Below are positions 1,164 through 32,661 of a stretch of DNA of 64,000 nt, in pieces (position 1 is the stretch's first letter; every line of letters starts with the position of its first letter). The position numbers and the translations under genes are program-made. Source of the stretch: Bacteroidota bacterium (lineage in GTDB: Bacteria > Bacteroidota > Ignavibacteria > UBA10030); contig DATECW010000088.1 in assembly GCA_035286705.1 (NCBI GenBank), forward strand, positions 2,853 to 66,852, read 5' to 3'. Below the pieces are notes generated by a model, which searched no databases, was not told the origin of the DNA, and saw only the letters and a program-made list of their open reading frames with translations.

Positions 1164-1589
1164 TCAATGCTTGTGGCCGTGAAAGTTGGGTTTCACTTTT
1201 TCTTTCGTCACGCCTGGAATGTCCTTACCCTCTCCAAGCTGCCATCCTGCATAGCAATCGGAACAAATACCTTTTCCCTCTCTCAAGTCCTTGTTGCAGG
1301 TGCAGCTCTGATGGTCCAGCGCGCATCGGTCACACGGCGCCTTTATGCAGCAGTTATAATACATCTCCTCTTTCGCTTCAGCAAGAAGCTCTTTTGCTTT
1401 CTGAACTTTCTCCTTCGCCGTGAGGCTGTCCGATTGTTTCTGAGACTTCGATTGAATGTTCTGCTGATCTGCCGCCGGTTTCGCAGTTTCCTGTTTCCCG
1501 TGGCCGGCATGCTTTTCCTGCGCAGTTGTCGTCGCGGAAAAAGCGACCGCTGCAATGACAATCAAACAAGCAATGATGATGCGCTGCAT
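1164..1589 (-). CDS. Secreted Cys-rich hypothetical protein with a His-rich C-terminus (HGHKH); possible metal binding
   Basis: N-terminal signal peptide. A Lys/Gln-rich linker, then a 12-Cys module (YYNCCIKAPCDRCALDHQSCTCNKDL...CSDCYAGW). No family recognised. Confidence 0.45.
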   Translation of the reverse strand: MQRIIIACLIVIAAVAFSATTTAQEKHAGHGKQETAKPAADQQNIQSKSQKQSDSLTAKEKVQKAKELLAEAKEEMYYNCCIKAPCDRCALDHQSCTCNKDLREGKGICSDCYAGWQLGEGKDIPGVTKEKVKPNFHGHKH

Positions 1590-1668
1590 AGCTCCTCCTT
1601 CAAGGTATTATTGGTTTGTGAACGGCGTGAATTCTCTTGTTTTTTCGTCGCTTCATGAGGCGACGATT

Positions 1669-2436: not shown

Positions 2437-2484
2437 GAAACCTCCCTTTCTAATGGTCCGACGAGTTTCTTTTCTTCCAAGAAC

Positions 2485-3216: not shown

Positions 3217-3229
3217 AAATTAAGAATGC

Positions 3230-4390
3230 CTACAATGCCTTTAGGGCGACCGTCGGATCGAGCCGCGACGCCTTATATGCAGGGTAGATACTTGAAACCA
3301 GTCCCACGGAAACAGCGAGCATTATCGAAAATGCAAACAATGCATAATCGGCTGACCAGCCGGCCGTCCCATTCACTGTCATCAATGGAGTTACCAACTG
3401 TGCAGCACCTGCACCGATGAAATATCCGCTCACCCCCGACAGAAAGCTCGTGAGAAATGCCTCCGTGAGAATGATCTTCATGACATGGGTTTGGCGGAAC
3501 CCGATGGCGCGGAAGATACCGATCTCCCTTGTTCGTTCATTCACGGACGCCATCATATTCGTGATAACAATAAGAGCTGCCACGAGGAGGACCACCCCGG
3601 AGATCCCATACGAGAAATGCTCAAACCGGTGCATCGCCTCCATTTTTGATTCAATCGTCTGACGAATGGCCACCACCTTCGCCCCGGGCAATTTCTCCGA
3701 TGTCTGGCGCACAATCTCCTCGATGGGACAGTCGTAACAGAGAGCCGCGACTTCGACGAGGCTCAATTCATCCGGTTTGCCGAACAATCGCTGGGCTTCC
3801 GCAAGATCAATGAATACAACGCCATCGTCTTGCGAACCGGTTGGTTCGAGGACCCCCGCAACGGTAAACGATTCTCCTTGGATCTCGAAAGACTGGTTCA
3901 AGTCGAGCCCGAGCGACTTCTTCGCGTCTGCTCCAATGATCGCCTGATCCTTCGTTGCCGGTCTCCGTCCAACCAACTTCCACCATTTCTTCAGTTGCAG
4001 TTCTTGATCGAACTCGACACCGACAACGAGGACGGTTCGGTCTATCACCTCGGTTATATTGAGAAGCTTCGGAGCGATGATCCTAATATTCTTGCTGTTC
4101 TCGATCGTGAGAATCTCCTGCGCGTCTTTTGTACGAAGCTGCTTCACATCCAAAGCAACGCCAGAGACCGCCATTCCACCGTAGTTCAGCGAGAGGTCAT
4201 CAGATTTTGGAGTGATGAGAATATTCGCTCCAAACTCGTCTAATTTGTTGGCAATATCTGCATTCATGATCCTGGCCACCGTAATGAGTGTGACAACCGT
4301 ACTGACGGCAATGGTTAGTCCAAGAACAAGAAAGAGCATCTTGGACTTTCGCCGTCGAAGATTGTTGAGCGAGATGTTGTAGAGTTTCAT
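3230..4390 (-). CDS. ABC transporter permease, FtsX/MacB family
   Basis: N-terminal TM helix, large periplasmic domain, three C-terminal TM helices. Size and topology fit FtsX-like permeases. Adjacent to the ABC ATPase. Confidence 0.8.
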   Translation of the reverse strand: MKLYNISLNNLRRRKSKMLFLVLGLTIAVSTVVTLITVARIMNADIANKLDEFGANILITPKSDDLSLNYGGMAVSGVALDVKQLRTKDAQEILTIENSKNIRIIAPKLLNITEVIDRTVLVVGVEFDQELQLKKWWKLVGRRPATKDQAIIGADAKKSLGLDLNQSFEIQGESFTVAGVLEPTGSQDDGVVFIDLAEAQRLFGKPDELSLVEVAALCYDCPIEEIVRQTSEKLPGAKVVAIRQTIESKMEAMHRFEHFSYGISGVVLLVAALIVITNMMASVNERTREIGIFRAIGFRQTHVMKIILTEAFLTSFLSGVSGYFIGAGAAQLVTPLMTVNGTAGWSADYALFAFSIMLAVSVGLVSSIYPAYKASRLDPTVALKAL

Positions 4391-5168: not shown

Positions 5169-7361
5169 TTACAATCTTGCACTTACACCTATGACCGGAA
5201 GAAATGGAATGATTGTTAGTTGTTCTTTCGAAGAATACGTCTCATCCCACATGTAGTGCACGATGTTCTTTTGATTGTAGGCATTCAGTACTTCCAAATA
5301 GACATCGAGATCGAACGATGCAAATTGAAAATGTCGAGTTACACGAACGTCGAGTCGATTATATGCCGAATAACGATCCGAGTTATGGATGCCGGGAATG
5401 GGAAACCAGCGTTCTTCGTTCGGGTCGTACCAGGACGAAGCGACCGGTGTGTATGGCCTTCCGCTGCCATAGCGGAAGCGCAAACCGGCTTGCCAATGTT
5501 CCGAGAATTTGTAGTTTGAAACGACACTTATCAAGTGTGGCCGGTCAAAATCGAAAACGTGCAGATCGCTGTTTGTTCCTTCTCTCCGCTTTGACAGAGA
5601 ATAGGTGTACGACAACCAGCCGAAGAATCCTTGACCATTCTTGAGTTGAACGTAAGACTCTACGCCGCGTGAGTATCCGTCGCCATTATTGGAAAGATTC
5701 CAAAGCGAATCGATTGTAATGAGTCGAGAAAGATTCTTGTTGTACAGCTCAAGGCTCACCACCATTGCGTCACCCACCTCGTGCCTGATGCCGATGCCAT
5801 AGCTTTCAGCACGCTTGGATTTGAGATTGCTGTTGATATCCAGCTCAAACGGTCGTGGTGACTGATAATACCATCCGTAGCCTGCCGAAAGACTCATGTG
5901 TTCATTCCAGGCATAGGAAAGATTGAATCGCGGGGAGAACGTACTCTCCTTGCTTTTCGCAATGTAGTCATATCGAACACCAACGCTCGCACTTAGCGAT
6001 GGGGAGATGGTCCATCTGTCATCAACATAAAGTGAAGGCTTCATGGATGTTCCGGTTCCCCGAAGTTTTAGCTCGTTGAAGTTCAAGGCTATTTCGAGCG
6101 GGACATCAATGGTGACATCTTCCTTCTCTCGACCGAGCCATCCGCCGATATGCAGCTCATTTGCGGGAAAGATGACGGTGAAATCCTGCTTGAGCGTCCA
6201 TTCTTGAATGTTGTATGCTTCTACGGCATTACGCGGTTGAACGGAAGAGCTTTTCGCTTGACTCCATGAGACGATAAAATCCGAAAGAAAGAACTCGCCG
6301 AGCAGAGAGCGAAGGCGGCCTGTTACAACACCGCTTTTGTTTTCCCAGGAAAAATCTCCTGTGTAGTTGGGACGGTCAAAAAAACCGTACATCCGTTCTC
6401 TGGAGTAAAGCCCGGAGAAGGTCAATTTATGGTCTTGTGAAAGGTTGAAATCCACTTTTGAGTTAATATCAAAGAAGTACGGCAGCACGCTGTAATCGCT
6501 GGCAAGATCAGTATATTTGAGCAGCACGTCGAAATAACTCCGCCGGGCAGAGAGCATTGCTGTGCCATTGGCAAATGCGAGCGGCACTTCGACTGTTCCA
6601 CTCGCATCCGACATGCTGATCGATGCCTCGCCATTCAGCTTCTCCATATTGCCGGTCCGATTCTCAATCAACAACACCGAAGAGAGCCTATCACCATAGC
6701 GGGCAGGGAATCCCGCCGCATAGAACTCGACTTTCTCGACGAGTCGGGAGTTGAAAATGCTCCAGTAGCCGCCGCCCATCATATCGAAATGGAATGGGTT
6801 TCGGATTGTTGCGCCGTCGTACAGCACGAGATTTTCATCCGGACTTCCGCCGCGCACGTAGAGCTTTGAATTGTCACCATCGGATGCGATTCCTGGGAGT
6901 GTCTGAACCACCCAGAAGATATCCTGGGCGGAACCTGGTGTATTGACCACCATTTGTTTTCCGAGACGCGCTGTGATGCCGCTTGCATCGTAGCGCTCGG
7001 GTTTCGGTGTAATGACGATTTCTTCCGTTTCCAAAGCTGTTTCTTCCAGCAGCACGTCAATAACATTTTCCCCCTGTTTGATTCGAACGTTTGAAACGAG
7101 CTTCTCCTTGAAACCGATCATCGAAAATCTCACGGTATACGTTCCAATCGGGATATTTTGAATAGAGTAACGTCCCTGTGAATTTGTTGCAGATCCAATG
7201 TTCGTGCCCTTGAGAATAACGTTGACCAGCTCAAGCGGCTGCTTTGATCCCTTGTCCAGCACAACTCCTTCAAGACTGCCCGTTTGCGCTTGTGCGGGGA
7301 GACAAACGACTGTGAGTGCAAACAATAAGACCATTAGAGACGATTTCATTTTGTGTCTCAT
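5169..7361 (-). CDS. TonB-dependent outer-membrane receptor with N-terminal CarboxypepD_reg-like domain
   Basis: Signal peptide, then a CarboxypepD_reg-like region (GVVLD...QPLELVNVILKGTNIGSATNSQGRYSIQNIPIGTYTV), plug and about 22-strand barrel length. The start may be at the MKSSL Met (7349). Confidence 0.8.
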   Translation of the reverse strand: MRHKMKSSLMVLLFALTVVCLPAQAQTGSLEGVVLDKGSKQPLELVNVILKGTNIGSATNSQGRYSIQNIPIGTYTVRFSMIGFKEKLVSNVRIKQGENVIDVLLEETALETEEIVITPKPERYDASGITARLGKQMVVNTPGSAQDIFWVVQTLPGIASDGDNSKLYVRGGSPDENLVLYDGATIRNPFHFDMMGGGYWSIFNSRLVEKVEFYAAGFPARYGDRLSSVLLIENRTGNMEKLNGEASISMSDASGTVEVPLAFANGTAMLSARRSYFDVLLKYTDLASDYSVLPYFFDINSKVDFNLSQDHKLTFSGLYSRERMYGFFDRPNYTGDFSWENKSGVVTGRLRSLLGEFFLSDFIVSWSQAKSSSVQPRNAVEAYNIQEWTLKQDFTVIFPANELHIGGWLGREKEDVTIDVPLEIALNFNELKLRGTGTSMKPSLYVDDRWTISPSLSASVGVRYDYIAKSKESTFSPRFNLSYAWNEHMSLSAGYGWYYQSPRPFELDINSNLKSKRAESYGIGIRHEVGDAMVVSLELYNKNLSRLITIDSLWNLSNNGDGYSRGVESYVQLKNGQGFFGWLSYTYSLSKRREGTNSDLHVFDFDRPHLISVVSNYKFSEHWQAGLRFRYGSGRPYTPVASSWYDPNEERWFPIPGIHNSDRYSAYNRLDVRVTRHFQFASFDLDVYLEVLNAYNQKNIVHYMWDETYSSKEQLTIIPFLPVIGVSARL

Positions 7362-7365
7362 TGAC

Positions 7366-8295
7366 TTAGAATTTGCGCCCTCCGTACTTTTTTTCTACCT
7401 CATCGACTAGCTGCACGATAGTGTATGTGCCCTCGCGAATCTTGTCATCAACAAAAGTCTTGACCTCCTGTGCTCCGCGTGGATGAGCACAACTGCAGTC
7501 TTTCAGTTCATCAATGCCGCATTGACCGCACGGGCACGTGAAGCGTGAAAAGACTTCCACTCGATCCGCAATGGTTGCGGGCTTGGAGGTGTTGGAGATT
7601 CTTGAAGCTAAGGCGAACATCTCGCTTACCGGCTGTTTGGGTACCGTGAGCTTTGTCGATTGCCCTGTCGTGTGGGCAAGAGAATCGTAGCGAGAGGAAA
7701 GCGCGGACTTCATCCACCCGAACGTGTTATTGACGGCAAGTATGATTTCCTGCGATGATTTTCCGGATTGAAGGTTCGTCCTGATGAATTGCCGTTCCTG
7801 TATGGCGGTGTTGCACCGGCAGGTATCGAGAGGCTGTTCCCCACACGCTCCGCACGAACAAATGAATTGTGAGGCAATGTCCAGCACTTTCCTCTCCAAG
7901 GCCGCATCGCTGCTCTTCAACTCCACGAGAGAGGCTTGTGGTTCCGGTTTCCCCCGCTCACCACGCTCGTAGAGTACAACAATGAAGAGAATCCCGGCAG
8001 TCAACAAGATAAGACCGACTACTCCGGGACTCCGGCGCCATTTCGTATCGACTCGTCGATCCTTTTTCTTGTATCGCGCTTGTGCTGGAGCCAGTTGTCG
8101 AGGGTGATGAGCTCGTTCTTGCCGAATTTCGGAACCGCAATTTGCGCAGAACTTCGCCCCTGGAATGCTTTCAAAGCTGCATGTAGGGCATGGCCTCAAA
8201 TCATTTGCCTTCTCTGTTTTCCCAACCTCAATACCACAGTTCGCACAAAACTTTGTATTATCCCTGTTTTCCGCACCACATTCGTTGCACTTCAT
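7366..8295 (-). CDS. Membrane-anchored protein with an N-terminal double zinc ribbon and two C-terminal PCYCGC-like Cys modules
   Basis: MKCNECGAE...FCANCG and CPTCSF...FCANCG are two zinc ribbons. One TM helix follows. Then two repeats: FICSCGACGEQPLDTCRCN and FTCPCGQCGIDELKDCSCAH. Confidence 0.55.
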   Translation of the reverse strand: MKCNECGAENRDNTKFCANCGIEVGKTEKANDLRPCPTCSFESIPGAKFCANCGSEIRQERAHHPRQLAPAQARYKKKDRRVDTKWRRSPGVVGLILLTAGILFIVVLYERGERGKPEPQASLVELKSSDAALERKVLDIASQFICSCGACGEQPLDTCRCNTAIQERQFIRTNLQSGKSSQEIILAVNNTFGWMKSALSSRYDSLAHTTGQSTKLTVPKQPVSEMFALASRISNTSKPATIADRVEVFSRFTCPCGQCGIDELKDCSCAHPRGAQEVKTFVDDKIREGTYTIVQLVDEVEKKYGGRKF

Positions 8296-21495: not shown

Positions 21496-23706
21496 TCAGC
21501 TCAGGAGCGACTCCAGGAGGCGGATGACTTCGCCCACGTCCCTTACATTGAACCTCGCGTGACTATTCGTGACACCCACGCGAATGGAATATGCATCTTC
21601 GGGGAGAGCACAAAAGAGATCTTCGTCAGTCCAGTCATCCCCAATGGCAAGTACGAAAGCGCCGGGTTCCCTCACAAGCCAGTGCCCTGCCGCCACGCCT
21701 TTGTTGACGGCGGCCGGCCTGACCTCGACAACCCGGTGTCCGCGAAGTATCTGGAGGTCGGTATTGGCTGCAAGATTCAGGAGGCGATCTGTCAGCTCGG
21801 CAGCAAGGAACGCCGCCTGATCCGGATCGGACATCCGGTAATGCCAGACAATCGAGTGTTCCTTTTCCTCCACGAGGGCACCCGGTAATCGGTCAGCGTA
21901 CTGCTCGAGAATTGGAAGCAGCGACGCTTTCCAGTCGTTGTTGCCGCGTCCCAGGAATTCCCAGTCCTTGTCTCTTTCCTTCCGCCAGATTCCATGTTCG
22001 GCAACGAACTCCATGGGAATGTCGTGAAACCATGAAATCAGTGTCTTCCGGTCTCTTCCGCTGATCAACACAGTGTTATTTTTCTTGTCGTTTGCCAGCT
22101 TTCTCAGCAATGCCAGAATTGAGGCTGAGGGTGTCGCAAGGTCGGGAAGCCGTACAAGGGGGGTGAGGGTACCGTCATAGTCGAGAAAAATAAGTCTCTT
22201 GGCCGCTCTTTGATAAGCATCGCGCAGTGCTTTGGCAGCCGCCGCTTCAAGAAGCCTGGCGTTCAGTTTCTCCTGAATTGCTTTTGCAGAATTCAATTCA
22301 CTGATGAAGTCTCCGGCCCAGCGGGTCACGTCGTAGCGCCTGAGGCGGCTCTGCATCATCCGGTTTCGGCGAATCTGCTCTCCGCTCTCCATGGCGAGGG
22401 CTTCCTTCAGTGCGGCTGCAATCTCGGCACGATCATTCGGGTTGATAATAATCGCCTCGCCCAACTCCTTGGCCGCACCAGCCATCTCGCTCAAGATAAG
22501 GACTCCCGTCCCTTCGGAACGGCATGCAACGTATTCCTTCGCAATGAGGTTCATCCCATCGCGCAAGGGAGTCACCAGGGCAATGTCGGCAACACCGTAC
22601 AGGGCTACGAGTGAGGTGAGCGAAAGCTGCCTGTACTGATAGATGACCGGCATCCATCCTATCGTTCCGAATCTGCCATTGATTTTTCCGACGTACTCTT
22701 CCACCTGCCTTTTCATCTGCTCATACTCTGTTACCCCAATGCGGGAGGGAACAACAACCATCGTCAGGACAACCTTGCCGTGAACCTCAGGGGTCGTTTC
22801 CAACAATACCTCATAACCCTGCAGCCGATGGAGGATCCCCTTGGTGTAATCCAGGCGGTCAACCGACAGAATCACCCTTGCCCCGCCGAGAACTTTTCTC
22901 AGCTCGTCCTTTTCTGCCTCCGTTTGCGGGTCGCAACTTGCGGTTGTGAACCTCTGATAATCGATACCCATGGGGAGCGTGTCCGTCTTGACAATCCGGT
23001 TCGGAAGAGAGATTTGTCCCATTGAGTGATCATGACCAAGGATGCGCAGGACTGATTGGAGAAAGTGATGGGTGTATTCGTACGTATGAAAGCCGATCAG
23101 GTCAGCACCCAGAAGGCCTTCCAGGATCCCTCTTCTCCAATGAAGGGGGAGCAGCCGGAAGATCTCAAATGAAGGAAAAGGGATGTGGAGGAAAAATCCG
23201 ACGACTGCGCTGGGCATCCTTTTTCGCAACATGGCCGGCAGCAACATCAGGTGATAATCCTGAATCCAGACCATATCATCTTCCCGCATGATCTCTCCAA
23301 GGGTATCGCAGAACAAGGTATTGACCTTTTCATACTGCTCCCAATAGTCTTCCCGGTAAGCCGTCCAGGAGGGAAAATAGTGAAAAAGCGGCCATATGGT
23401 GCTGTTGCAGAAGCCCATGTAGAATTTCTCCATGTCGCTTTCGGACAGGAAGACCGGGCTTGCATGGTACTCAGCGAGCGCCCGTACGCGCACTGTCTCG
23501 CGATACGGTTCGTCCACCGTGGCACCGGGCCATCCGACCCAAAGATGGTCTTCACTCCTGGGGAAATGGTCCTTGTAGGAATCGAGGAAGGCACTGAGAC
23601 CCGTTGTGAGGCCTCCTGCGACCTCGCCAAAACGGACCTCCCCCTCGACAACGCTTGCCGAAAAAGGAAGACGATTTGAGACAATGATGAGTCGACGATG
23701 TTTCAC
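21496..23706 (-). CDS. otsA: Bifunctional trehalose-6-phosphate synthase / trehalose-6-phosphatase (OtsA-OtsB fusion; GT20 + HAD)
   Basis: N-terminal GT20 region (RLIIVSNRLP..., WVGWPG, HDYHLMLLPAMLRK). C-terminal HAD phosphatase with DXD motif (IFLDYDGTLTP). 736 aa. Confidence 0.85.
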   Translation of the reverse strand: MKHRRLIIVSNRLPFSASVVEGEVRFGEVAGGLTTGLSAFLDSYKDHFPRSEDHLWVGWPGATVDEPYRETVRVRALAEYHASPVFLSESDMEKFYMGFCNSTIWPLFHYFPSWTAYREDYWEQYEKVNTLFCDTLGEIMREDDMVWIQDYHLMLLPAMLRKRMPSAVVGFFLHIPFPSFEIFRLLPLHWRRGILEGLLGADLIGFHTYEYTHHFLQSVLRILGHDHSMGQISLPNRIVKTDTLPMGIDYQRFTTASCDPQTEAEKDELRKVLGGARVILSVDRLDYTKGILHRLQGYEVLLETTPEVHGKVVLTMVVVPSRIGVTEYEQMKRQVEEYVGKINGRFGTIGWMPVIYQYRQLSLTSLVALYGVADIALVTPLRDGMNLIAKEYVACRSEGTGVLILSEMAGAAKELGEAIIINPNDRAEIAAALKEALAMESGEQIRRNRMMQSRLRRYDVTRWAGDFISELNSAKAIQEKLNARLLEAAAAKALRDAYQRAAKRLIFLDYDGTLTPLVRLPDLATPSASILALLRKLANDKKNNTVLISGRDRKTLISWFHDIPMEFVAEHGIWRKERDKDWEFLGRGNNDWKASLLPILEQYADRLPGALVEEKEHSIVWHYRMSDPDQAAFLAAELTDRLLNLAANTDLQILRGHRVVEVRPAAVNKGVAAGHWLVREPGAFVLAIGDDWTDEDLFCALPEDAYSIRVGVTNSHARFNVRDVGEVIRLLESLLS

Positions 23707-23855: not shown

Positions 23856-25073
23856 CTAGAGGGAAACGACATCCCCCTGATGGAACAAGGAAATAAACAG
23901 CAGCAGATAATCTCTGATGTGGCGGGTGATGAGAAAATTGTTCTTGATGTGTTCCCTGCCGTTCAAACCCAGCTTGCGTGCATATTCAGGCTCGTTGATC
24001 ATCTGCTTGATCCAGTATGCTGTTCCCTCAACGGAATGAGTGAGAATTCCCGAATACTTGTGGGCAATTTGCAGGGGAATTCCCCCCACCGCAGAGGCTA
24101 TTGTCGGCCTTCCCTTCCACAACGCCTCCGAGACAGTCAGCCCAAAACCCTCTTTCAGGGATTTCTGCAGTACTACCGTTGACCCGCGTTGAAGCGCGTT
24201 GATTTCGAGATCGCTCCCAGGCGGCAGGAAAAGCGAGAAAATGTTCTTGTCACCTGCAGCCTCGTCTTCGACCTGTTTCATGATCGCAGGGCCCTCCGGA
24301 TCGTCCGTAGCACCACCGCCTGCAAGCACCAACTGAACATCCAGGTGTTTTTTGACAAGCTTGTATGCTTTGATAACGCCAAGAGGATCTTTGAGATAAT
24401 CGAAACGGGAGATCTGGGTGACGACCGGCAGGGAACGGTCAATATGAAACCGCTCAAACACAGAATCAATGTAGCTTTCGGGCAGTTCCTTGTTCTTATC
24501 GCTCAAAGGGTCAATGGACGGAGCAATCAACACCTGGGGAATTGGAAGACTTCGGGCAAATGCCGGAGCGGAAAAAACGGCGACATCGTACCGCTTGATA
24601 TATTGTTCCAGGAAACTCCAGATCTTCCTGTCGGGCCTGGAGAAGTCGATATGACAACGCCACATCCATTTTCGTCCTTCGTGTTTGTCCTGGTCGATAA
24701 GGGCAACCGGCTGGGGATCGTGAACAAACACAAGCCCTGCGGACTGGAGCACCTGCGCATTATCCCGGTTGACCTGCAGAAACCACTCGTACTCATCGTC
24801 GCTCACCGTCACCGGCACTCCGTGAAGCCCGTTGTGGAATTTCTTCGTTATCACAAAGAATTTCTCGTCGCCTTTAATGACATCCCACCGGGCCTGGACA
24901 CCCAGCTGATTGAGGAGCGGTATCATTCGGGAAAGTATCTCCGCGACACCGCCTCCCACGGCAGTCGAGTTAATATTCTGCACCTGCTTCCCTTCCAGAT
25001 GCCTCGCCAGCATGCGGAGCTCATCAACGGTCGACTGTCCCACGATTGGGATGTATTCTTCAAGCTGTACCAT
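23856..25073 (-). CDS. treT: Trehalose glycosyltransferring synthase TreT (GT4)
   Basis: Multiple blocks match archaeal/Thermotoga TreT: NSTAVGGGVAEIL, VHDPQPVALI, WRCHIDFS, PSIDPLSDKN, VTQISRFD, DDPEG, KEGFGLTVSEALWKG, AVGGI, NNFLITRHIRDYL. Confidence 0.8.
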   Translation of the reverse strand: MVQLEEYIPIVGQSTVDELRMLARHLEGKQVQNINSTAVGGGVAEILSRMIPLLNQLGVQARWDVIKGDEKFFVITKKFHNGLHGVPVTVSDDEYEWFLQVNRDNAQVLQSAGLVFVHDPQPVALIDQDKHEGRKWMWRCHIDFSRPDRKIWSFLEQYIKRYDVAVFSAPAFARSLPIPQVLIAPSIDPLSDKNKELPESYIDSVFERFHIDRSLPVVTQISRFDYLKDPLGVIKAYKLVKKHLDVQLVLAGGGATDDPEGPAIMKQVEDEAAGDKNIFSLFLPPGSDLEINALQRGSTVVLQKSLKEGFGLTVSEALWKGRPTIASAVGGIPLQIAHKYSGILTHSVEGTAYWIKQMINEPEYARKLGLNGREHIKNNFLITRHIRDYLLLFISLFHQGDVVSL

Positions 25074-25701
25074 GCACCTGCACCAATTGTATGATCATGC
25101 TTCGAAGCCCTTCGAGCGTATAGGTATACGGGTCAAGGCGAGCAACCATGTCCGCAAGCTCCATCTTTCCAAGATCACGAAACCAGCGTGAGAAATCGTT
25201 TTCCCCTTTTTCCAGTCTCAATTTGGCCTCAAAGATATGATAGTACAGCGAGCCGTGGCTAATCAGCTTCAACGATTCCACAAAATCCTGAAGCGAATGC
25301 GCTACGTACGGTGTGCGGAGGACAAAGGTTCTCGCCGCCATGAAGTGAAATTCCTGGCCCGCTGGAGCCGAGGGCATACGCTCCGTGCTGTCCATGTGTG
25401 ATTGCAGAATGTCAACGAAGACATTCCGAAGCTCTTCCAGAGTGTGGAACTGTATGATATCGACACTGGAGATTCTCTCCGCCAGCGATCCTTCGTTCAG
25501 GACATCAGTGATCCAGTACGCAAAATCGTTGGGGGGCTCCGGAGAAAGAAAGTGGTGCTGCCGGAGATACCGATGCGTGTGGTAATAAATCGAAGATTCC
25601 GGGACCCCCTGGACCCCTGCGAGCAATTCAGAGAGGTTTCGCGCCTTGATTCCCAGGAGGATCGATTGATCCAGTTTCGTATGGAAATAGAATTCGTCCA
25701 A
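25060..25701 (-). CDS. Conserved hypothetical protein co-transcribed with treT
   Basis: 213-aa soluble ORF overlapping treT by 14 nt. No recognised motif. Confidence 0.4.
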   Translation of the reverse strand: MDEFYFHTKLDQSILLGIKARNLSELLAGVQGVPESSIYYHTHRYLRQHHFLSPEPPNDFAYWITDVLNEGSLAERISSVDIIQFHTLEELRNVFVDILQSHMDSTERMPSAPAGQEFHFMAARTFVLRTPYVAHSLQDFVESLKLISHGSLYYHIFEAKLRLEKGENDFSRWFRDLGKMELADMVARLDPYTYTLEGLRSMIIQLVQVHGTA

Positions 25702-25863
25702 CTTCGCTCCTCTGGTGTGGGTTTTCTTTCACAATCAATATTACGAGAGTCACTTAGAAAGTCAAGCATTGAAGAGACCGATTACAGGCGGAGGTCACCG
25801 ATGGCGAAGGTCTGACTTTGATTCTTTTGGCTGAAAATGCTATACTGTTTTCACGGTTGAACA

Positions 25864-26925
25864 ATGAGTGACTCCGGCCTCACACGCTTCCTGAAGGAAC
25901 ACAAAGAGAAACTGAATCCCCTTCTCGTGCTCACACACGACTATCCGGATCCGGACGCGCTCGCTTCTGCGTTCGCCCTGACGTATCTCGCAGAGCAACT
26001 GGCCGGCATTCATGGCAAAATCGTTCATGGAGGAGTCATCGGGAGAAGCGAAAACCGGGAGATGGCGAGACTTCTCAAGATTCCGGCGCACAAGCTTCAG
26101 ACTTCGGATCTGAGCCACTTTGCGGGGATTGCCCTCGTGGATACACAGCCGATCTTTGACAACAACTCATTCCCGGCGACACGGAAAGCATCGTTAGTCA
26201 TTGATCAGCATCCCAGCGATGAACCGCCGAATGCCGAGTTTGTCCTCATTGATACTGAAGCAGCTGCGACATCTGCTTTGTTGGCCAGAGAACTTCTCGC
26301 CAGCAACCTGGCAATTCCGGCCCCGCTTGCCACAGCTCTTGTATACGGCATTCTCTCCGACACTCTCAATTTCTTTCGGGTCACGAATCGTGAAACCATC
26401 GAGCTCTATCTGCGACTCTTGCACCGCGCGGATATCCGTATGCTCGCCCGAATCCAGAACCCGCCGCGTCCAAGGAAGTTTTTCGGAGACCTCGCGGCTG
26501 GAATCGAAAAAGCATGGGCACAGGGAACACTCATCGTTACGCATCTGGGCCCAACCGAATTTCCAGACCATATCTCCCAAATGGCCGATTTCCTGTTAAC
26601 GTGCGAAGGAATCCAGTGGGCTTTTTGTACGGGCTGGCACGGGGAATTTCTCCATATGTCGTTGCGAACGAACCTCCCTGATGGCCAAGCTGTCGTCATT
26701 CTTCGCGCAATCTGCGACCATCCCCGACAGGCCGGGGGTCACGGTCAAATCGCGGGCGGAAAAGTGAACCTCGGAGCGATGAACGAGAAGAGCCGTTGGA
26801 AATCCACGGAGGAGTTCACAAGAAGGCTCATCAACCAACTCGACAAGGGTCGCCGGGGGCGGATTACTCCGCTCATCGCTTCCGGTCCCGTCGGCCTGAT
26901 GCCACAACAAAAAAGGAGAAGTTGA
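25864..26925 (+). CDS. DHH/DHHA1 phosphoesterase (NrnA / DhhP-type); candidate pApA / c-di-AMP phosphodiesterase
   Basis: LTHDYPDPDALASAFAL (DHH motifs I-II), VIDQHP (motif III with DQH instead of DHH), AGGHGQIAGGK (DHHA1 GGGH motif). Ends 2 nt before cdaA. Confidence 0.7.
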   Translation: MSDSGLTRFLKEHKEKLNPLLVLTHDYPDPDALASAFALTYLAEQLAGIHGKIVHGGVIGRSENREMARLLKIPAHKLQTSDLSHFAGIALVDTQPIFDNNSFPATRKASLVIDQHPSDEPPNAEFVLIDTEAAATSALLARELLASNLAIPAPLATALVYGILSDTLNFFRVTNRETIELYLRLLHRADIRMLARIQNPPRPRKFFGDLAAGIEKAWAQGTLIVTHLGPTEFPDHISQMADFLLTCEGIQWAFCTGWHGEFLHMSLRTNLPDGQAVVILRAICDHPRQAGGHGQIAGGKVNLGAMNEKSRWKSTEEFTRRLINQLDKGRRGRITPLIASGPVGLMPQQKRRS

Positions 26926-26927
26926 CG

Positions 26928-28088
26928 ATGTTTGAGATCTTCGAGTCCGTCGGTGTCCCCGATCTGCTGGATATCCTCTTCATGACCATCGTTATCTATT
27001 CCGCTCTGGTGTGGTTCAAGCGCACGCGGGCCGGATTTGCAGTGCTCGGATTGTTCATCTTCGGGGCAGTCTATCTTCTGGCACGTCAGCTCGACCTCAC
27101 GCTCACGACAATCGTCTTCCAGGGATTTTTCGCGATCATCCTGATCGCGATTGTCATTCTTTTCCAGGAGGAGATCAAGCATTTCCTTGAACAACTCGCA
27201 AGCCGCAGTCTCATTCAGGGCCGCCGGTTGAAGGAGCGATTCGGCGTATCAAAGAATCGAGCACAGATCCTTGTCGATTCCCTCAACAACCTCGCCCGCC
27301 AAAGAATCGGAGCAATCATTGCCGTCCGGGGAAAGGACCCTATCTCACGCCATCTTAACGGAGGGATAGCGCTCAACGGGGAGGTGAGTGAGGAACTGAT
27401 TCGCAGTATCTTTAACCCGTCCGCGCCGGGTCATGACGGCGCTGTCGTTATTGAAGGGGACCGCGTGACGGTTTTTTCGTGCTATCTTCCTCTTTCCCGC
27501 GACTTTCAAAGATTCGAAAAGGCGGGATCACGTCACGCCGCGGCGCTGGGCCTCGCAGAACTCACAGATGCGCTTTGCCTCGTTGTTTCGGAAGAGCGAG
27601 GTACAATCTCTGTTGCGCGGGGCAGCCGCATCCGCGCGCTTCGGGATGCCGAAGAATTACGAGCGGCGATCGCGGCGTTCTACGAAGAGACCCTGCCGAC
27701 GAGCAAGGCGGGAAAGTGGAAGAGCTTCTTTAAGAAGAGCTACAGAGAACTCGCTATTGCATTTGGTGCCACAGTTATTCTCTGGTTCTTTTTCGTCCAT
27801 GCGACAAGGATCGACTACCGAACGTTCACTATACCGGTGGAACCCAACATCCCCCAGGCGTTGGAGATTCATAGTATGGATCCACCCGAGGTTCAGGTCA
27901 CATTCTCGGGGACCCGACGCGCATTCTGGTTCATCGGTACAGATCAGATCAAAATCAGCCTGAAATTCCAGGGAAGGGGAACCTTCCGAAAGACAATTAC
28001 CCGGTCGGATATTTCCTCACCGGAAGGCCTCGTGCTGGAGAATATTGAGCCAAACAGGATTGTGGTGCAGATTGGAGGGAAATCCTGA
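26928..28088 (+). CDS. cdaA: Diadenylate cyclase CdaA fused to a C-terminal TM + YbbR (CdaR-like) domain
   Basis: Three N-terminal TM helices. DAC domain motifs APGHDGAVVIEGDRV and GSRHAAALGLAE. Then a TM helix (LAIAFGATVILWFFFV) and about 100 aa with the YbbR pattern (VQVTFSGTRRAFW...ISLKFQGRG...PEGLVLENIEPNRIVVQIGG). Start moved to MFEIF (26928). Confidence 0.75.
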   Translation: MFEIFESVGVPDLLDILFMTIVIYSALVWFKRTRAGFAVLGLFIFGAVYLLARQLDLTLTTIVFQGFFAIILIAIVILFQEEIKHFLEQLASRSLIQGRRLKERFGVSKNRAQILVDSLNNLARQRIGAIIAVRGKDPISRHLNGGIALNGEVSEELIRSIFNPSAPGHDGAVVIEGDRVTVFSCYLPLSRDFQRFEKAGSRHAAALGLAELTDALCLVVSEERGTISVARGSRIRALRDAEELRAAIAAFYEETLPTSKAGKWKSFFKKSYRELAIAFGATVILWFFFVHATRIDYRTFTIPVEPNIPQALEIHSMDPPEVQVTFSGTRRAFWFIGTDQIKISLKFQGRGTFRKTITRSDISSPEGLVLENIEPNRIVVQIGGKS

Positions 28089-28166: not shown

Positions 28167-30524
28167 TCAGGGGGTTGGTTCATTCTGGCGGGCTTCCTGG
28201 ACGCGGCGGAGAATTGTGAGAAAGAATCCTACTACGAGGGTCACCGTCCCCATCCACACGAGGTTGATCATCGGCTTGATGCTGGCTTCGACCACAAGGG
28301 TCTCAGCCTTCCGCCCGGCTATGGGATCGTCGGGAAGCTTTACCGAGAGCTGAACCTTCGACTTCGAGGGGTCTTCCCTGTCTGGCAAAATTCGGGAAAG
28401 TGTGAAAACATAATCCCCCACTCCCTTCAGTGCATAGGGAACTGGAACGGGCTCCATCGTTCCCTTTTCACCTTTGATAGACACAGTCAGCTTCTTCCCC
28501 GTGCCGGCTTTCCCCTCTTTTACTAACAGACCGGCGCTGATGGTGAAATCGCGACCTTCAACCATCGCCATCCGATCGACGTTCGTGAAATCCACAAATT
28601 CAACCTGAAGATCCCCTATTTCGGCAGTCTGGCCCTTCTGAATTTCAACCGATTTCTCCTGTGCGGCGGCGGGCTCCTCCAGGGAAAGCGGGGCAAGATA
28701 GATGTCCTTGCTCAGAAGATTCATCAAGTCGGGATGACGCATGAGCCCTTTCGTGAACTCGCTGTAGTACATCACAGGAGACACAGAATGCCGGCGGCCG
28801 TCTCTTTCGAGATCAACACGGAATGCATATTTCTCCTGGTCAATCGGGGCGTAGCCGACATACGTCATGGTATATCCAAGAGCTTCGACCGGCTTGTTTC
28901 GCTCAAGCGAGATAGTTTCTTGCTCATCGTACCGTTCCGAGGTAATAAATCCCAGACAAAGAAGAGCAAGACCGATATGAGCGATCGAACCCCCGACGAA
29001 CTTTGGATTTCCCACATAGATGGCATACCCAACCTGCGTGTTGGCAACGAGAGAGAACACTGCACAGAAGGCAAAAAGGAGAATCAGGACTTCTTCCGTC
29101 GCAAATATGGCCATGAAGACGGTAGCAAGAGCTGCAACGACGAGAGACGGCAGCATGCCGCGCAGAACCGACCCGCCTTGTGAATGTCGCCACCAGAGGA
29201 GCTGACCCAATCCCGACAGAAAAGCAATAGCGATGCCAAGTGGAAGGTTCGTTTTCACATAGTACGACATCTCTACAGCGGAAGCTTTGCCTTTGAGAAT
29301 TGTTGTAATGATTGGCGAAGAGGTTCCAATGGTGACAAAAATCGCAACCGCAGCAAGTGCAAACGCTCCGAGGAACAGCGCAAACTCTCGTGAGAAAAAT
29401 GAATGCTGAACCGGAATCCTGGGCATTTCGCGTGAACGCACGTAGAGCAAGCCGAAACCGAGTCCGGCAAAGAAGATGATGCAACCCATCAACAACCAAT
29501 ATACCCACATCCCCGGATCGACAAACGAATGCACCGATGTTTCTCCCAGGACGCCGCTCCTCGTGAGGAACGTACTATACAGGACGGCAAGGAATGTGAG
29601 GATGCTGAGGGCGAAGTTCGTTTTTTGATAGGAACCGTTTTTTCGCTGCACAAGGGTCGTATGAATCGTTGCAACACACACAAGCCATGGTACAAGAGAC
29701 GAATTCTCGACCGGATCCCATCCCCAGAACCCGCCCCATCCCAGTGTTTCGTACGCCCAATAGCCGCCCAGAATAATACCAGTGCCGAGAATCATTGCGC
29801 CAAACACAAGCCATGGAGTCGCTACCTTGATCCAGGATGTGTAGTCCCTCTTCATGAGTCCCGCTATGGCATGTGCATACGGTACTGCCATCGACGAGAA
29901 TCCGATGAACAGAATTTGCGGATGAATCACCATCCAGTAATTCTGGAGGAGGGGATTCAGTCCCTTTCCTTCTACGGGAAACTGAGCCCAAATATTTCGC
30001 GCCGCATCGAGGACAACGATATTCCCCATCTCCGCTGGAAGAGGCCCTGTATGAATGAGGTCGCTGGGAAATTTATCCCAGATGAACTCAAACGGATTCT
30101 TGACGATCAGCATGAGCAAGAGAAACGAGAGAATGAGCGAGTAGACGCTCATAACTTCCGGCTCGTAGCTCTTCCTCATGGAGTACTGCATCAAGAAAAC
30201 GCCGATGAGGGCCGTATAGAGCGCCCAGAGTGTAAAACTTCCCTCCTGCCCGGCATAGAACGTCGATATCAGCAGAGGCAAAGAGAGATTCGTCGAACTG
30301 TAGTTCCAGACGTACGAGTACTGAAACTGGTGAGTCAAGATGAGGTAAAGCAGGATGGCAGAAGCCGAAAGAAGAGAAATTGTTGCCAGATGATAGCTGT
30401 TCCGCGCCAACCCGAGAAGGAATGGCTGGTTGGTCTTGTACACCCGGTAATACATGAAAGCGCCTGCCAGAGCGGCGAGCAAGGCAAGCTTGATGAGAAC
30501 GGCACCCACAATACCGATCGTCAT
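28167..30524 (-). CDS. ccmF: Cytochrome c-type biogenesis protein CcmF (System I heme lyase)
   Basis: 785 aa polytopic. WWD motif WGGFWGWDPVENSSLVPWL. Conserved His-containing loops. C-terminal periplasmic domain with a final TM helix. Confidence 0.8.
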   Translation of the reverse strand: MTIGIVGAVLIKLALLAALAGAFMYYRVYKTNQPFLLGLARNSYHLATISLLSASAILLYLILTHQFQYSYVWNYSSTNLSLPLLISTFYAGQEGSFTLWALYTALIGVFLMQYSMRKSYEPEVMSVYSLILSFLLLMLIVKNPFEFIWDKFPSDLIHTGPLPAEMGNIVVLDAARNIWAQFPVEGKGLNPLLQNYWMVIHPQILFIGFSSMAVPYAHAIAGLMKRDYTSWIKVATPWLVFGAMILGTGIILGGYWAYETLGWGGFWGWDPVENSSLVPWLVCVATIHTTLVQRKNGSYQKTNFALSILTFLAVLYSTFLTRSGVLGETSVHSFVDPGMWVYWLLMGCIIFFAGLGFGLLYVRSREMPRIPVQHSFFSREFALFLGAFALAAVAIFVTIGTSSPIITTILKGKASAVEMSYYVKTNLPLGIAIAFLSGLGQLLWWRHSQGGSVLRGMLPSLVVAALATVFMAIFATEEVLILLFAFCAVFSLVANTQVGYAIYVGNPKFVGGSIAHIGLALLCLGFITSERYDEQETISLERNKPVEALGYTMTYVGYAPIDQEKYAFRVDLERDGRRHSVSPVMYYSEFTKGLMRHPDLMNLLSKDIYLAPLSLEEPAAAQEKSVEIQKGQTAEIGDLQVEFVDFTNVDRMAMVEGRDFTISAGLLVKEGKAGTGKKLTVSIKGEKGTMEPVPVPYALKGVGDYVFTLSRILPDREDPSKSKVQLSVKLPDDPIAGRKAETLVVEASIKPMINLVWMGTVTLVVGFFLTILRRVQEARQNEPTP

Positions 30525-30539
30525 TCAGAATTGTCCTCC

Positions 30540-30929
30540 TTATAAAGTCTTTTTTACGGCTTCAGCGTCTCCTTCATATTTTGACGGGCACTTTGTCAGT
30601 ACCTCCTTCGCATGAAAATGATCCCCGCTGAACGTGCCCTTTGCCACAACACTCGTGGCAATCTCGAAATTGTTCGGCTTGGCACCTTCAAGAACGACTT
30701 TCATGACCATCTGGTTGTCGTCCTTCATGTAAAACATAAACTGCGCCTTGTCCGGGTCGAACTTGCTGTCCATATCCTTCATCCATTCCCCCTTCACCTG
30801 AACTTTCTTGCCGGTCTTCTCGGCCGTCGCAAAGTCGGCATACTCCACATTCGACTCAAAAAAATTCACAGCACCCAGTACAAGTCCGACGACAATCACA
30901 GCTGCAGCGACAATAACCTTCCCGTTCAT
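30540..30929 (-). CDS. ccmE: Cytochrome c maturation heme chaperone CcmE, CxxxY variant
   Basis: N-terminal TM anchor, OB-fold-sized body. C-terminus LTKCPSKYEG aligns with E. coli LAKHDENYTP, so the heme-binding His is replaced by Cys. Confidence 0.7.
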   Translation of the reverse strand: MNGKVIVAAAVIVVGLVLGAVNFFESNVEYADFATAEKTGKKVQVKGEWMKDMDSKFDPDKAQFMFYMKDDNQMVMKVVLEGAKPNNFEIATSVVAKGTFSGDHFHAKEVLTKCPSKYEGDAEAVKKTL

Positions 30930-30937
30930 GGCGTTCT

Positions 30938-31075
30938 CTATCCCTTCTTCATTGATTGTTCCAGTTCTTTCACTTTCCTGTCGAGCCGCAACAAATAGAA
31001 TACGATCCCTGCCCAGATGAGCAGAATGATGGTCATGACAATAAACAATTGATTGTTCGCAAAAAATTCGAGCAT
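30938..31075 (-). CDS. ccmD: Small single-TM protein, CcmD-like (not in ORF track, 45 aa)
   Basis: Reverse-strand reading gives MLEFFANNQLFIVMTIILLIWAGIVFYLLRLDRKVKELEQSMKKG*. It sits exactly between ccmC and ccmE, with start codon adjacent to the ccmC stop. Confidence 0.5.
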   Translation of the reverse strand: MLEFFANNQLFIVMTIILLIWAGIVFYLLRLDRKVKELEQSMKKG

Positions 31076-31786
31076 TTATCCCTCTTCGTTCTGAAGTATC
31101 CGGTGATAGTCCAATCGGGCAACCCTCAGGCGCAGATTAAAAAGCCAGATGTAGAGCAGATTGAATCCGACAAGTCCAAGATAAAAAAGGACCCGCATGT
31201 TTGCCGCCATCATTTTCCCCTCGAACAACGGGCCCGAGCCTTCATCCCCTTTTGCCCCTGGATGAAGCCCTCCCACCATGCGCGGCATGACGAAAATAAA
31301 GAACGGTACGGTCAATCCCGCAATGATCGCGTACACAGCCGACAGTGCGGCCCTTTTTTCTTCCGAATCAATCGCCGAGCGCAGCGCAAAATAGGCGCCG
31401 TAGATCAGAAGAAGAACAAAAATTGATGTCTGTCGCGGATCCCAATTCCAGAAGGACCCCCAATTGAATTTCGCCCACAGCGCTCCCGTTACGGTCGCCA
31501 GAATGCAGAACAGGAGTCCCAATCCCGCAGACGTCACTGATTTCAGATCGTCGTCGATGTTTCTTTTTCGCAAATAACGAATGCCATAAAATGTGGAAAC
31601 AAGGAAGGCCAGTACCGTTGTCCATGCTGTGGGGACATGGAAGAAAATATTGCGTGCCTTTTGTTCCAGTCCCGGGATTTCAGGGAATTCCAGCCAGCTG
31701 GTCGGGGAAGGAACGAGAGGAATCGCCAGTCCTGCGACCAGGACAAATGTGATGATAAGAATGGATCCCAGTTTAACGAATTTCAT
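31076..31786 (-). CDS. ccmC: Heme exporter protein CcmC
   Basis: Six TM helices. WWD domain FNWGSFWNWDPRQTS. 236 aa. Confidence 0.85.
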   Translation of the reverse strand: MKFVKLGSILIITFVLVAGLAIPLVPSPTSWLEFPEIPGLEQKARNIFFHVPTAWTTVLAFLVSTFYGIRYLRKRNIDDDLKSVTSAGLGLLFCILATVTGALWAKFNWGSFWNWDPRQTSIFVLLLIYGAYFALRSAIDSEEKRAALSAVYAIIAGLTVPFFIFVMPRMVGGLHPGAKGDEGSGPLFEGKMMAANMRVLFYLGLVGFNLLYIWLFNLRLRVARLDYHRILQNEEG

Positions 31787-31834
31787 CGAGATTTGAGAAG
31801 TGGATATTTACAGGTGCAGCCTACCGCATTCAAT

Positions 31835-31980
31835 TTCACACCTCTGTGGCACTCTGTGTAATGTTTCTTTCCCTTGGGTTATTTCACAGAGAGACACAGA
31901 GCAAGAAAAGAGAGTTCCACAGAGAAAAGCTTCCCTCTGTGTCCCTCTGTGACTTCTCTGTGACACACTGTGTAATATTC
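31835..31980. repeat. Intergenic palindromic repeat element (CACAGAG x3 / CTCTGTG x3 arms plus a CTCTGTG..CTGTGTAAT copy) inserted between ccmB and ccmC
   Basis: 31885-31925 is cacagagagacacagagcaagaaaagagagttccacagag. Its reverse-complement-like arm at 31935-31976 is ctctgtgtccctctgtgacttctctgtgacacactgtgtaat. A further cctctgtggcactctgtgtaatg sits at 31841-31863. The ctctgtgtcc core recurs at 45406. Confidence 0.6.
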
Positions 31981-31989
31981 TCTTTGAAA

Positions 31990-32661
31990 CTAATCCTTCC
32001 AAACATAGTCGAAGAGCAGGTACGAACCCGCGGTGATGACCATAACATAGGAGATTAACACCAGAAAATCTACAGCAGCTTCACCGAATCGCTCACCATC
32101 GAGTGCTTTCGCGGTCGCATTCATCACGCTCATCAGCAGAATGATCAAGATCGGAAACGAAAGAACCGGATATAAAGTTCCTCGTGTGTTCGCTTTTGCG
32201 ATGATCGCCGCGATGATGGTTGCAGCCGATGCCAATCCCAGGCTTCCAAGAACGACAGTCACGAGGAAAACATCGAGCGACTGGATCGAGAAGCCCGGAA
32301 AAGCCACTGTATACACAATGGTAACACCCAGGACAAGTGACAGGGTCAACAGGACGTTGAACAGCAGTTTCCCAAAATATACGGAGGATGGAATCGCCAC
32401 CAATTGAAGCGTAAGCGCGGTGCCACGTTCTTCTTCACTCACAAAGGCTCTCGAAAGTCCGGACATAGCCGAAAAGAAAACAACAACCCAGAACATTCCC
32501 GCGAGCACCGTACTCGAGGGCTGGTCTCCTCGCAAAGCAAAGAGGATGATTGAAACCGTGGTGAGAACAAACATGAGGAGGGCATTCAGAGCATACCGCG
32601 TCCGAAGCTCGGACTGGACGTCCTTTGTCACAATGGCATAAATGCTCTTCCACGTATTCAT
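31990..32661 (-). CDS. ccmB: Heme exporter permease CcmB
   Basis: 223 aa, six TM helices, positioned between ccmA and ccmC. Confidence 0.75.
   Translation of the reverse strand: MNTWKSIYAIVTKDVQSELRTRYALNALLMFVLTTVSIILFALRGDQPSSTVLAGMFWVVVFFSAMSGLSRAFVSEEERGTALTLQLVAIPSSVYFGKLLFNVLLTLSLVLGVTIVYTVAFPGFSIQSLDVFLVTVVLGSLGLASAATIIAAIIAKANTRGTLYPVLSFPILIILLMSVMNATAKALDGERFGEAAVDFLVLISYVMVITAGSYLLFDYVWKD

Follow-up and report, generated by a model that had tools for sequence, protein, structure and literature searches.

A 64,000-nucleotide stretch of a metagenome-assembled genome (MAG) deposited as 'Bacteroidota bacterium' (contig DATECW010000088.1, positions 2,853 to 66,852; the whole stretch is called the window here) carries two adjacent open reading frames (ORFs), both on the + strand and together occupying positions 25864-28088, which probably form a self-contained operon for the homeostasis of cyclic di-AMP (c-di-AMP), a second messenger. 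The first of them, ORF A (25864-26925, +; 353 amino acids), encodes a stand-alone DHH/DHHA1 phosphoesterase of what we call the 'DQH' subfamily, and the second, ORF B (26928-28088, +; 386 amino acids), encodes a CdaA-type diadenylate cyclase with a C-terminal transmembrane (TM) helix and one YbbR-family domain. For some homologues the precomputed Pfam annotations show the CdaA-YbbR architecture, yet it is unstudied; our literature search found no description of a CdaA-YbbR fusion, of the DQH variant or of this gene pair, the classification of DAC domains into 22 families (Galperin 2023) lying outside its coverage.

Domains and motifs of the two proteins

The N-terminus of ORF B contains three TM helices (approximately residues 13-30, 37-52 and 59-79; positions 26964-27164, +) that appear as hydropathy peaks near residues 19, 43 and 70 and as helices in an AlphaFold2 (AF2) model, and residues 6-83 match Pfam CdaA_N (PF19293; 31.9 bits against a cut-off of 23.8). 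The DAC catalytic domain, delimited by Pfam and by alignments, spans residues 117-234 (27276-27629, +) and scores 118.4 bits with Pfam DAC (PF02457), above the cut-off. In the AF2 model this domain superimposes on the CdaA/DacA crystal structures with Foldseek E values of 6e-14 to ~1e-13 and target-normalised template modelling scores (TM-scores) of 0.85-0.91; identity is 32-36%. ORF B has more than 2000 homologues of ~390 amino acids, and its assignment as a CdaA-type cyclase that makes c-di-AMP is well supported and likely to be correct. An earlier reading of the window, made from the sequence alone (the sequence-only reading), credited the cyclase with all of the DAC motifs, and in this it went too far. 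The DGA (D170-G171-A172; 27435-27443) and SEE (221-223) motifs are kept, with H169-DGA invariant and aligning to HDGA of Bacillus subtilis CdaA, but the RHR position reads RHA (R202-H203-A204; 27531-27539); the alignment places GSRHAAA of ORF B against GTRHRAA of the B. subtilis and Listeria CdaA proteins, and RHA is invariant across the ORF B family alignment. Related, longer fusion proteins (discussed below) have RHR (P0329), RHS (P0384) or RHA (P0360 and P0321) at this position, which suggests that the third residue of the motif is tolerant of change. The NCBIfam CdaA equivalog TIGR00159 gives 176 bits, a near miss of its cut-off of 188.8.

Beyond the DAC domain lies a fourth TM helix (TM4; approximately residues 275-292; 27750-27803, +), predicted from hydropathy, which peaks at residue 284, and from the model, in which residues 260-291 are helical; L285, W286 and V290 are invariant, and the helix is preceded by the Lys-rich stretch KAGKWKSFFKKSYRE. 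The rest of the protein (residues 293-386; 27804-28085, +) is modelled as an all-beta domain of 94 residues with eight strands and a short helix (predicted local distance difference test score, pLDDT, ~85), and homologue and profile searches point to a single divergent YbbR-family domain. The Pfam YbbR profile (PF07949) does not match ORF B even at E<=1, either with the full-length protein or with the isolated C-terminus, so that of the Pfam matches expected by the sequence-only reading that to DAC exceeds its cut-off, whereas YbbR goes unmatched and DHH and DHHA1 fall below their gathering scores (see below). A C-terminus unlike any YbbR profile would have spoken against the fusion. The direct match indeed fails, yet PF07949 matches 20 of 25 homologous C-termini taken singly (best E 1.9e-8; these C-termini are 31-56% identical to that of ORF B), and the same family is annotated in precomputed form on several full-length ORF B homologues. 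A profile built from the 25 C-termini finds one match in the PDB, the YbbR domain of the Listeria CdaR protein Lmo2119 (5hqh; E 0.0014, and E 5.6e-5 by hhalign), and when run against 1.84 billion representative proteins it recovers 1910 of them at E<=0.001. Among its top matches are stand-alone proteins of 300-413 amino acids (P0357, P0358, P0371, P0374 and P0330; profile E ~1e-13 to 1e-16) with two to four YbbR stretches above the Pfam threshold. Because the homologues match PF07949 and the profile recovers both CdaR and these multi-YbbR proteins, the C-terminal domain of ORF B is, by transitivity, assigned as a divergent YbbR-family member, and the TM helix and single YbbR-type domain that had been read at the C-terminus of CdaA are upheld. 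Two other searches were less informative: a word-indexed homologue search with the C-terminal profile returned 2 proteins only, and the 50 matches listed when the whole CdaA model was compared with the PDB by Foldseek were to DAC-domain structures only. The C-terminal domain has a mean column identity of 49%, and P319, R331, F333 and P365 are invariant.

The fusion in ORF B has longer relatives. CdaA proteins of 483-573 amino acids (P0329, P0360, P0384 and P0321) contain a DAC domain and a Pfam YbbR match, and in P0329, P0360 and P0384 two stretches match the C-terminal profile; by these profile matches the cdaA-cdaR fusions form a graded series with one to at least two YbbR repeats. Segments rich in Lys and Arg are found between TM1 and TM2 (KRTR) and, as noted, before TM4; from the positive-inside rule and the accepted topology of CdaA, in which the DAC domain is cytoplasmic, the YbbR-family domain is predicted to be periplasmic. 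The YbbR domains of CdaR are extracellular in Firmicutes (PMC8316131), and cdaA followed by cdaR is the gene order in Firmicutes, Borrelia and Leptospira (PMC8316131, PMC12974146). The order CdaA-TM-YbbR in ORF B equals this gene order and so speaks for an origin by gene fusion; together, domain order and predicted topology fit the proposal that the cyclase has been joined to its usually separate regulator CdaR.

ORF A is a full-length two-domain DHH/DHHA1 fold in the AF2 model (pLDDT 89.8; predicted TM-score, pTM, 0.74), and neither the model nor Pfam indicates any other domain in its 353 amino acids. Its scores with Pfam DHH (23.9 bits) and DHHA1 (14.7 bits) lie below the gathering scores of 28.1 and 25.9, respectively, which accounts for its database label of 'hypothetical protein'. 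The family is large, with 2035 clusters of homologues at E<=0.001 among 8000 candidates scored. Foldseek comparison of the model with the PDB gives 74 matches at E<=0.001, and all 50 of the 50 listed are DHH-family proteins. The top neighbour is the catalytic domain of Staphylococcus aureus GdpP (E 1.3e-19), followed by Thermotoga maritima TmPDE, Borrelia DhhP, a Deinococcus radiodurans RecJ-like protein, Rv2837c and NrnA/Pde2, all with 16-20% identity; Bacteroides fragilis Nrn is another structural neighbour. The GdpP catalytic domain is also the sole full-length PDB match of the ORF A family profile (E 2e-8, residues 21-324), and the DHHA1 half alone has marginal PDB matches, to GdpP (E 0.11) and to the DHHA1 domain of AlaRS (E 0.21).

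The active-site motifs were examined in an alignment of 30 homologues. DHH motif I, which contains the metal-binding DxD, is H25-D-Y-P-D-P-D31 in ORF A (25936-25956, +); it is invariant in the form H25-D-x-P-D29-P-D31 and aligns to HKRPDLD of GdpP and HQNPDSD of the family II pyrophosphatases. Motif III reads D114-Q115-H116 in place of DHH (26203-26211, +), just as the sequence-only reading had it, and this DQH is invariant in the 30 homologues; it aligns to the DHH of GdpP and of the family II pyrophosphatases, with Q at the position of the first His. H25, D29 and D31 of motif I, D93 of motif II, D114 and H116, and D166 of motif IV are all invariant. The DHHA1 domain has the strand H264-M-S266-L-R268, in which S-L-R is invariant and which aligns to I-S-A-R-S of GdpP, and further on G291-G292-H293 (26734-26742, +), the equivalent of the GGGH substrate-binding motif in the homologue alignment; G291 and G292 are invariant, H293 is kept in most homologues, and the motif, which lies within AGGHG (290-294), aligns to GGGGH of GdpP.

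By sequence, the strongest profile match of ORF A is to the N-domains of family II pyrophosphatases (E 1.4e-11). Membership in that family was rejected: the score is 39.7 bits against an NCBIfam cut-off of 283, the match is limited to the N-domain (residues 20-173 or 20-176), the C-terminal domain is DHHA1-like and not DHHA2, and the structures superimpose poorly (TM-score ~0.45, root mean square deviation ~13 Å). In these pyrophosphatases the first His of DHH, whose position Q115 occupies, presumably acts as a ligand of the second of the two metals, and the His after it contacts phosphate. The amide oxygen of a Gln could still serve as a metal ligand, and the replacement might shift the metal preference.

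ORF A had been placed in the DhhP/Pde2/NrnA type, and this assignment stands for its stand-alone architecture and size but not for NrnA by sequence. NCBIfam NrnA gives 20.5 bits against a cut-off of 350, and the published RxRxR motif of NrnA-like proteins (PMC9779919; compared as a motif and not by direct alignment with NrnA) is replaced in ORF A by HxSxR, whose S-x-R is shared with GdpP, the nearest relative. ORF A and its homologues are best described from their sequences as a DQH subfamily of their own, which combines a DhhP/Pde2-like architecture with a sequence nearer to the GdpP catalytic module. The fold agrees with the earlier call of a stand-alone DHH/DHHA1 gene beside cdaA, and the solved relatives are all hydrolases of c-di-AMP, pApA (the linear dinucleotide) or nanoRNA; by analogy ORF A may be expected to hydrolyse c-di-AMP and/or pApA.

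The gene pair and its conservation

ORF A ends with a TGA codon at 26923-26925. The program-made ORF list starts ORF B at a TTG codon (26796) that would place 130 nt of it inside the DHH gene, but this start is ruled out by the N-termini of homologues and by public gene calls: an alignment with 27 homologues places the N-terminus 'MFEIFESVG' at the ATG at 26928, and on two other contigs the public calls give products of the same 353 and 386 amino acids. With this start only 2 nt (26926-26927) separate the two genes, the spacing given by the sequence-only reading. A Shine-Dalgarno sequence for cdaA, AGGAGA (26914-26919, +), lies 8 nt before the ATG and within the 3' end of the DHH gene, and a scan found no terminator-like site between ORF A and ORF B. 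The 2-nt spacing and the position of the cdaA ribosome-binding site inside the DHH gene suggest that one mRNA encodes both proteins, whose translation is probably coupled. A consensus scan also found a sigma-70-like promoter site, TTGATT-17-TATACT with TG before the -10 element (25818-25846, +), 18 nt upstream of the DHH start codon; with 4 such sites in the region against 1.2 expected, it is weak evidence.

In the NCBI records ORF B is HLA69175.1, 'diadenylate cyclase', and ORF A is HLA69174.1, 'hypothetical protein VJN65_05685', as named by the Prokaryotic Genome Annotation Pipeline (PGAP). The closest relatives of both proteins belong to MAGs that bear the labels Ignavibacteriae, Ignavibacteriales or Bacteroidota. 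Within the 64-kb window we found no further ORF of the DAC, DHH or YbbR kind, nor did Rfam identify a c-di-AMP (ydaO/kimA) riboswitch there; the sole above-threshold Rfam match in the window is a single tRNA gene (60894-60980, +).

Conservation of the pair was surveyed from both of its members. When the DHH alignment was compared with 185,579 species-representative genomes (one per species), 360 relatives were found, and the best 80 loci were inspected. cdaA lies directly after the DHH(DQH) gene on the same strand in 34 of these 80, which come from at least five phyla and include every informative Ignavibacteriota/Bacteroidota MAG among them; the other MAGs with this arrangement are labelled Thermodesulfobacteriota or Deltaproteobacteria, Myxococcales (Myxococcota-like), Planctomycetota (Planctomycetales), Verrucomicrobiota/Opitutales/Limisphaerales and Fibrobacteria. 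The cyclase has a YbbR-like end in 32 of the 34 (30 recognised by tblastn and 2 by hidden Markov model, HMM). In two Fibrobacteria-like loci (L046 and L069, both at 7006-7911) the cyclase ends after TM4, and no YbbR domain is encoded near the DHH-cdaA pair in either; as judged from these sequences the YbbR domain can be lost with TM4 retained. When metagenomes were scanned with the cyclase alignment, 80 loci were obtained, and the C-terminal domain is present in 73 of them. Only the 51 with >=1100 nt of upstream sequence were counted for a DHH neighbour, and the DHH gene is directly upstream of cdaA in 29 and directly downstream in 2 more (31 of 51).

This linkage of cdaA and the DHH gene across phyla, and in both gene orders, is good evidence that the two share a function. 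The earlier recognition of a c-di-AMP module in which a CdaA-type cyclase stands beside a DHH/DHHA1 enzyme is upheld. The linkage is frequent and not obligatory. On the other hand, the arrangement had been called notable, and as a claim of rarity this does not survive: the pair is common in Ignavibacteriota/Bacteroidota MAGs and present in further phyla, and being so widespread it is more ordinary than was first read. DQH-type DHH genes are also common in Omnitrophota (within L023-L066, loci that are mostly of this phylum), at ~48-52% identity; in one of these (L026) the DHH gene (5953-7023) is followed by genes for two small proteins, one rich in Cys and the other a membrane protein.

Trehalose and haem genes in the neighbourhood

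Divergent from the pair, on the - strand of the window, lie genes for a trehalose-6-phosphate synthase/phosphatase (TPS/TPP) fusion (21496-23706), a TreT-like glycosyltransferase (23856-25073) and a DUF5752 protein (25060-25701; 231.7 bits). The DUF5752 gene shares 14 nt with the end of the TreT-like gene, and the two genes are companions in every related locus seen; the DUF5752 protein looks like an uncharacterised accessory of a TreT-like trehalose synthase. The trehalose trio is directly upstream of DHH-cdaA in many Ignavibacteria-like MAG loci (L004, L006, L007, L010, L011, L015, L016 and others). In L016 the TreT gene is co-directional with and just upstream of the DHH gene, and in a Bacteroidetes MAG (UBA9647; L053, 942-8262) the TPS, TPP, DUF5752, TreT, DHH and CdaA-YbbR genes are all co-directional, with gaps of -4 to 24 nt, in an apparent operon.

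c-di-AMP controls the uptake of potassium and of compatible solutes. We found no report in the literature that links it to trehalose synthesis. The trehalose cluster beside the pair may be mere lineage synteny, but the fact that rearranged trehalose genes still adjoin the pair argues for something beyond it, and c-di-AMP may be linked to compatible-solute synthesis through this neighbourhood. The neighbourhood suggests a testable connection between the messenger and osmolyte production; if such a c-di-AMP/trehalose circuit is real, it would tie the messenger to the biosynthesis of compatible solutes, beyond their uptake alone.

Haem-related genes also recur near DQH-type DHH genes, which could be by chance. 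Downstream of the pair in the window (28167-32661, -) are CcmF and CcmE genes (Pfam), then putative CcmC- and CcmB-like ORFs. In a Thermodesulfobacteriota locus (L019, 8746-12230), hemE, hemH and a protoporphyrinogen-oxidase-like gene (Pfam) come right after DHH-cdaA, and in the Omnitrophota locus L026 the upstream side of the lone DHH gene has, at a distance of a few genes, URO-D-like and ferrochelatase-like ORFs (811-4157), read by eye.

Proposed function and comparison with known systems

In the operon that we favour, the membrane-anchored ORF B protein would convert two ATP to c-di-AMP in the cytoplasm. Beyond the DAC domain its chain would recross the membrane through TM4 and end in one periplasmic YbbR-family domain, in effect a CdaR-type regulator fused in cis and reduced to one repeat. 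This domain may relay a cue from the envelope or periplasm via TM4 to TM1-3 and the DAC domain and so tune the output of the cyclase. The ORF A protein, presumably cytoplasmic, would hydrolyse c-di-AMP and/or pApA, and a single mRNA would set the capacities for synthesis and degradation together. To our knowledge, neither the signal sensed by CdaR/YbbR domains nor their mode of action on CdaA is understood in any organism studied. A natural single chain of CdaA, TM helix and YbbR with one repeat argues for a direct, one-to-one mechanism in cis, and it could serve as a minimal construct in structural and biochemical studies of a regulator whose signal has been called unknown and whose sign of regulation differs between species (PMC9259658). 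The DQH subfamily is of interest in its own right: it is large, its members score under the Pfam and NCBIfam thresholds and often carry the label 'hypothetical', and their genes recur beside that of the cyclase; if these proteins do degrade c-di-AMP, they would fill a gap in the turnover of the messenger in several poorly studied Gram-negative phyla.

Several points weigh against this scheme and leave it less settled than was first read. The literature holds no enzymology for ORF A, ORF B or any close relative. Q115 stands in place of a metal-ligating His, and catalysis may be altered as a result. The cyclase has RHA for RHR and falls short of the TIGR00159 cut-off, for which reasons normal c-di-AMP synthesis is likely yet uncertain. 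Nor are the two genes always together: 20 of the 51 cdaA-YbbR metagenome loci are without an adjacent DHH gene, and in most Omnitrophota loci no cyclase adjoins the DQH-type DHH gene. In the AF2 model the pLDDT of the TM region is low, at 47-62, so no contact between TM4 and TM1-3 can be claimed from it. Finally, CdaR acts with opposite sign in different species (PMC9259658), and the direction of any regulation by the fused domain is therefore unpredictable.

The chief rival concerns the substrate of ORF A. The DHH protein could be a general nanoRNase, a phosphatase of pAp (3'-phosphoadenosine 5'-phosphate) or a strict dinucleotidase that clears pApA and short RNAs but leaves the c-di-AMP ring unopened, the true phosphodiesterase (of PgpH, GdpP or AtaC type) being encoded elsewhere. 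Its stand-alone DHH/DHHA1 architecture is that of NrnA, Pde2 and DhhP, NrnA, Pde2 and B. fragilis Nrn are among its fold neighbours, its homologues are labelled COG0618 'nanoRNase/pAp phosphatase' by the Joint Genome Institute (JGI), and the Omnitrophota DHH gene stands without an adjacent cyclase; Listeria NrnA is reported to have a limited role in cyclic dinucleotide metabolism (bioRxiv 10.1101/2021.04.21.440870), and other phosphodiesterases may lie in the genome beyond the 64 kb of the window. We nevertheless regard this as rather unlikely, since the NrnA score is far below its cut-off, H-x-S-x-R with the S-x-R of GdpP replaces RxRxR, the GdpP catalytic domain matches it best over the full length by sequence and by fold alike, and a housekeeping RNase is not expected to be tightly linked to cdaA in several phyla. 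Another possibility is that the DQH protein is catalytically weakened and serves mainly as a binding partner or regulator of the cyclase (a GlmM-like part) or as a sensor of c-di-AMP or pApA. The first His of DHH is replaced in every member, the gene is in an operon position beside cdaA, and there are known cases of a cyclase regulator encoded within the cdaA operon (PMC8573169, PMC6368335). However, the seven other active-site residues listed above are invariant and the GGH is conserved, a pattern typical of an active enzyme, and a Gln may still ligate metal through its amide oxygen, so that this role appears quite improbable.

Two other rivals concern the cyclase. Its YbbR-like domain might act in the periplasm as no more than a passive anchor or localising element, at the cell wall or division site for instance, with no effect on activity; the signal for YbbR domains is called unknown (PMC9259658), and the two Fibrobacteria-like proteins that keep TM4 without the domain indicate that it is dispensable in some lineages. 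Yet in Listeria, S. aureus and P. gingivalis the level of c-di-AMP changes when CdaR is deleted (PMC9259658 and references therein), and the domain is well conserved, with its four invariant residues; a purely passive anchor is thus unlikely, if less so than a weakened ORF A. Least probable of all is that the product of the RHA-type DAC domain is a nucleotide different from 3'3'-c-di-AMP, as it is for some anti-phage DAC domains. The RHR motif is altered family-wide, and DAC domains in defence systems are reported to synthesise diverse signals in a 2026 preprint (bioRxiv 10.64898/2026.08.10.743927), but the architecture is the classic CdaA one (CdaA_N and DAC), the score with the CdaA equivalog is 176 bits, no defence genes adjoin the pair, and the occurrence of RHR, RHS and RHA among related fusions makes the residue appear tolerant. 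A bolder extension of the c-di-AMP operon is that many Gram-negative lineages (Ignavibacteriota, Verrucomicrobiota, Thermodesulfobacteriota, Omnitrophota and others) have in the DQH-type DHH/DHHA1 protein a dedicated c-di-AMP phosphodiesterase that has so far gone unrecognised and whose Gln retunes the metal site, and that with a self-sensing CdaA-YbbR it would make up a minimal two-gene circuit, coupled in the Ignavibacteria-like lineage to de novo trehalose synthesis. We put this forward tentatively, as possible but short of likely.

Among known systems, the family II (Mn-dependent) inorganic pyrophosphatases resemble ORF A in the N-terminal DHH domain only. The S. aureus GdpP catalytic domain (PDB 5xsi/5xsp/5xt3) aligns with it in motifs I, II and IV, the S-x-R strand and the GGH loop, but identity is only 17-18% and ORF A has DQH for DHH. 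GdpP carries in addition N-terminal TM helices, a PAS domain and a degenerate GGDEF domain; Pfam finds no such match in ORF A, which begins at the DHH domain. DhhP of Borrelia, Pde2/NrnA of S. aureus, CnpB/Rv2837c of Mycobacterium and TmPDE of Thermotoga have the same stand-alone two-domain architecture and size, and differ from it in sequence (16-20% identity), in RxRxR where ORF A has HxSxR, and in DHH where it has DQH.

In Porphyromonas gingivalis, which belongs to the same phylum-level group as the host of the window, CdaR is an unlinked, separate protein, and a PgpH/HD-type enzyme is used, no DHH/DHHA1 c-di-AMP phosphodiesterase having been found there (PMC9259658). Borrelia and Leptospira are Gram-negative users of CdaA and YbbR, but as two proteins, with a ybbR gene separate from cdaA (PMC8316131, PMC12974146). 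The stand-alone YbbR proteins found here have two to four Pfam stretches, compared with the one YbbR domain of ORF B. The closest parallel is the cdaA-cdaR-glmM operon of Bacillus, Listeria and Staphylococcus, whose cyclase has the same three-TM CdaA_N followed by DAC, with a catalytic domain 32-36% identical to that of ORF B, and in which a YbbR-family domain lies, as is predicted here, on the membrane's outer face behind a single TM helix, in the order cyclase then YbbR. The differences are that one polypeptide here replaces separate genes there, that no glmM is adjacent, that RHA stands for RHR, and that the host is a Gram-negative of the FCB (Fibrobacterota, Chlorobiota and Bacteroidota) group. 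The module is thus a widespread, uncharacterised variant of the known CdaA/CdaR system and not a new kind of system.

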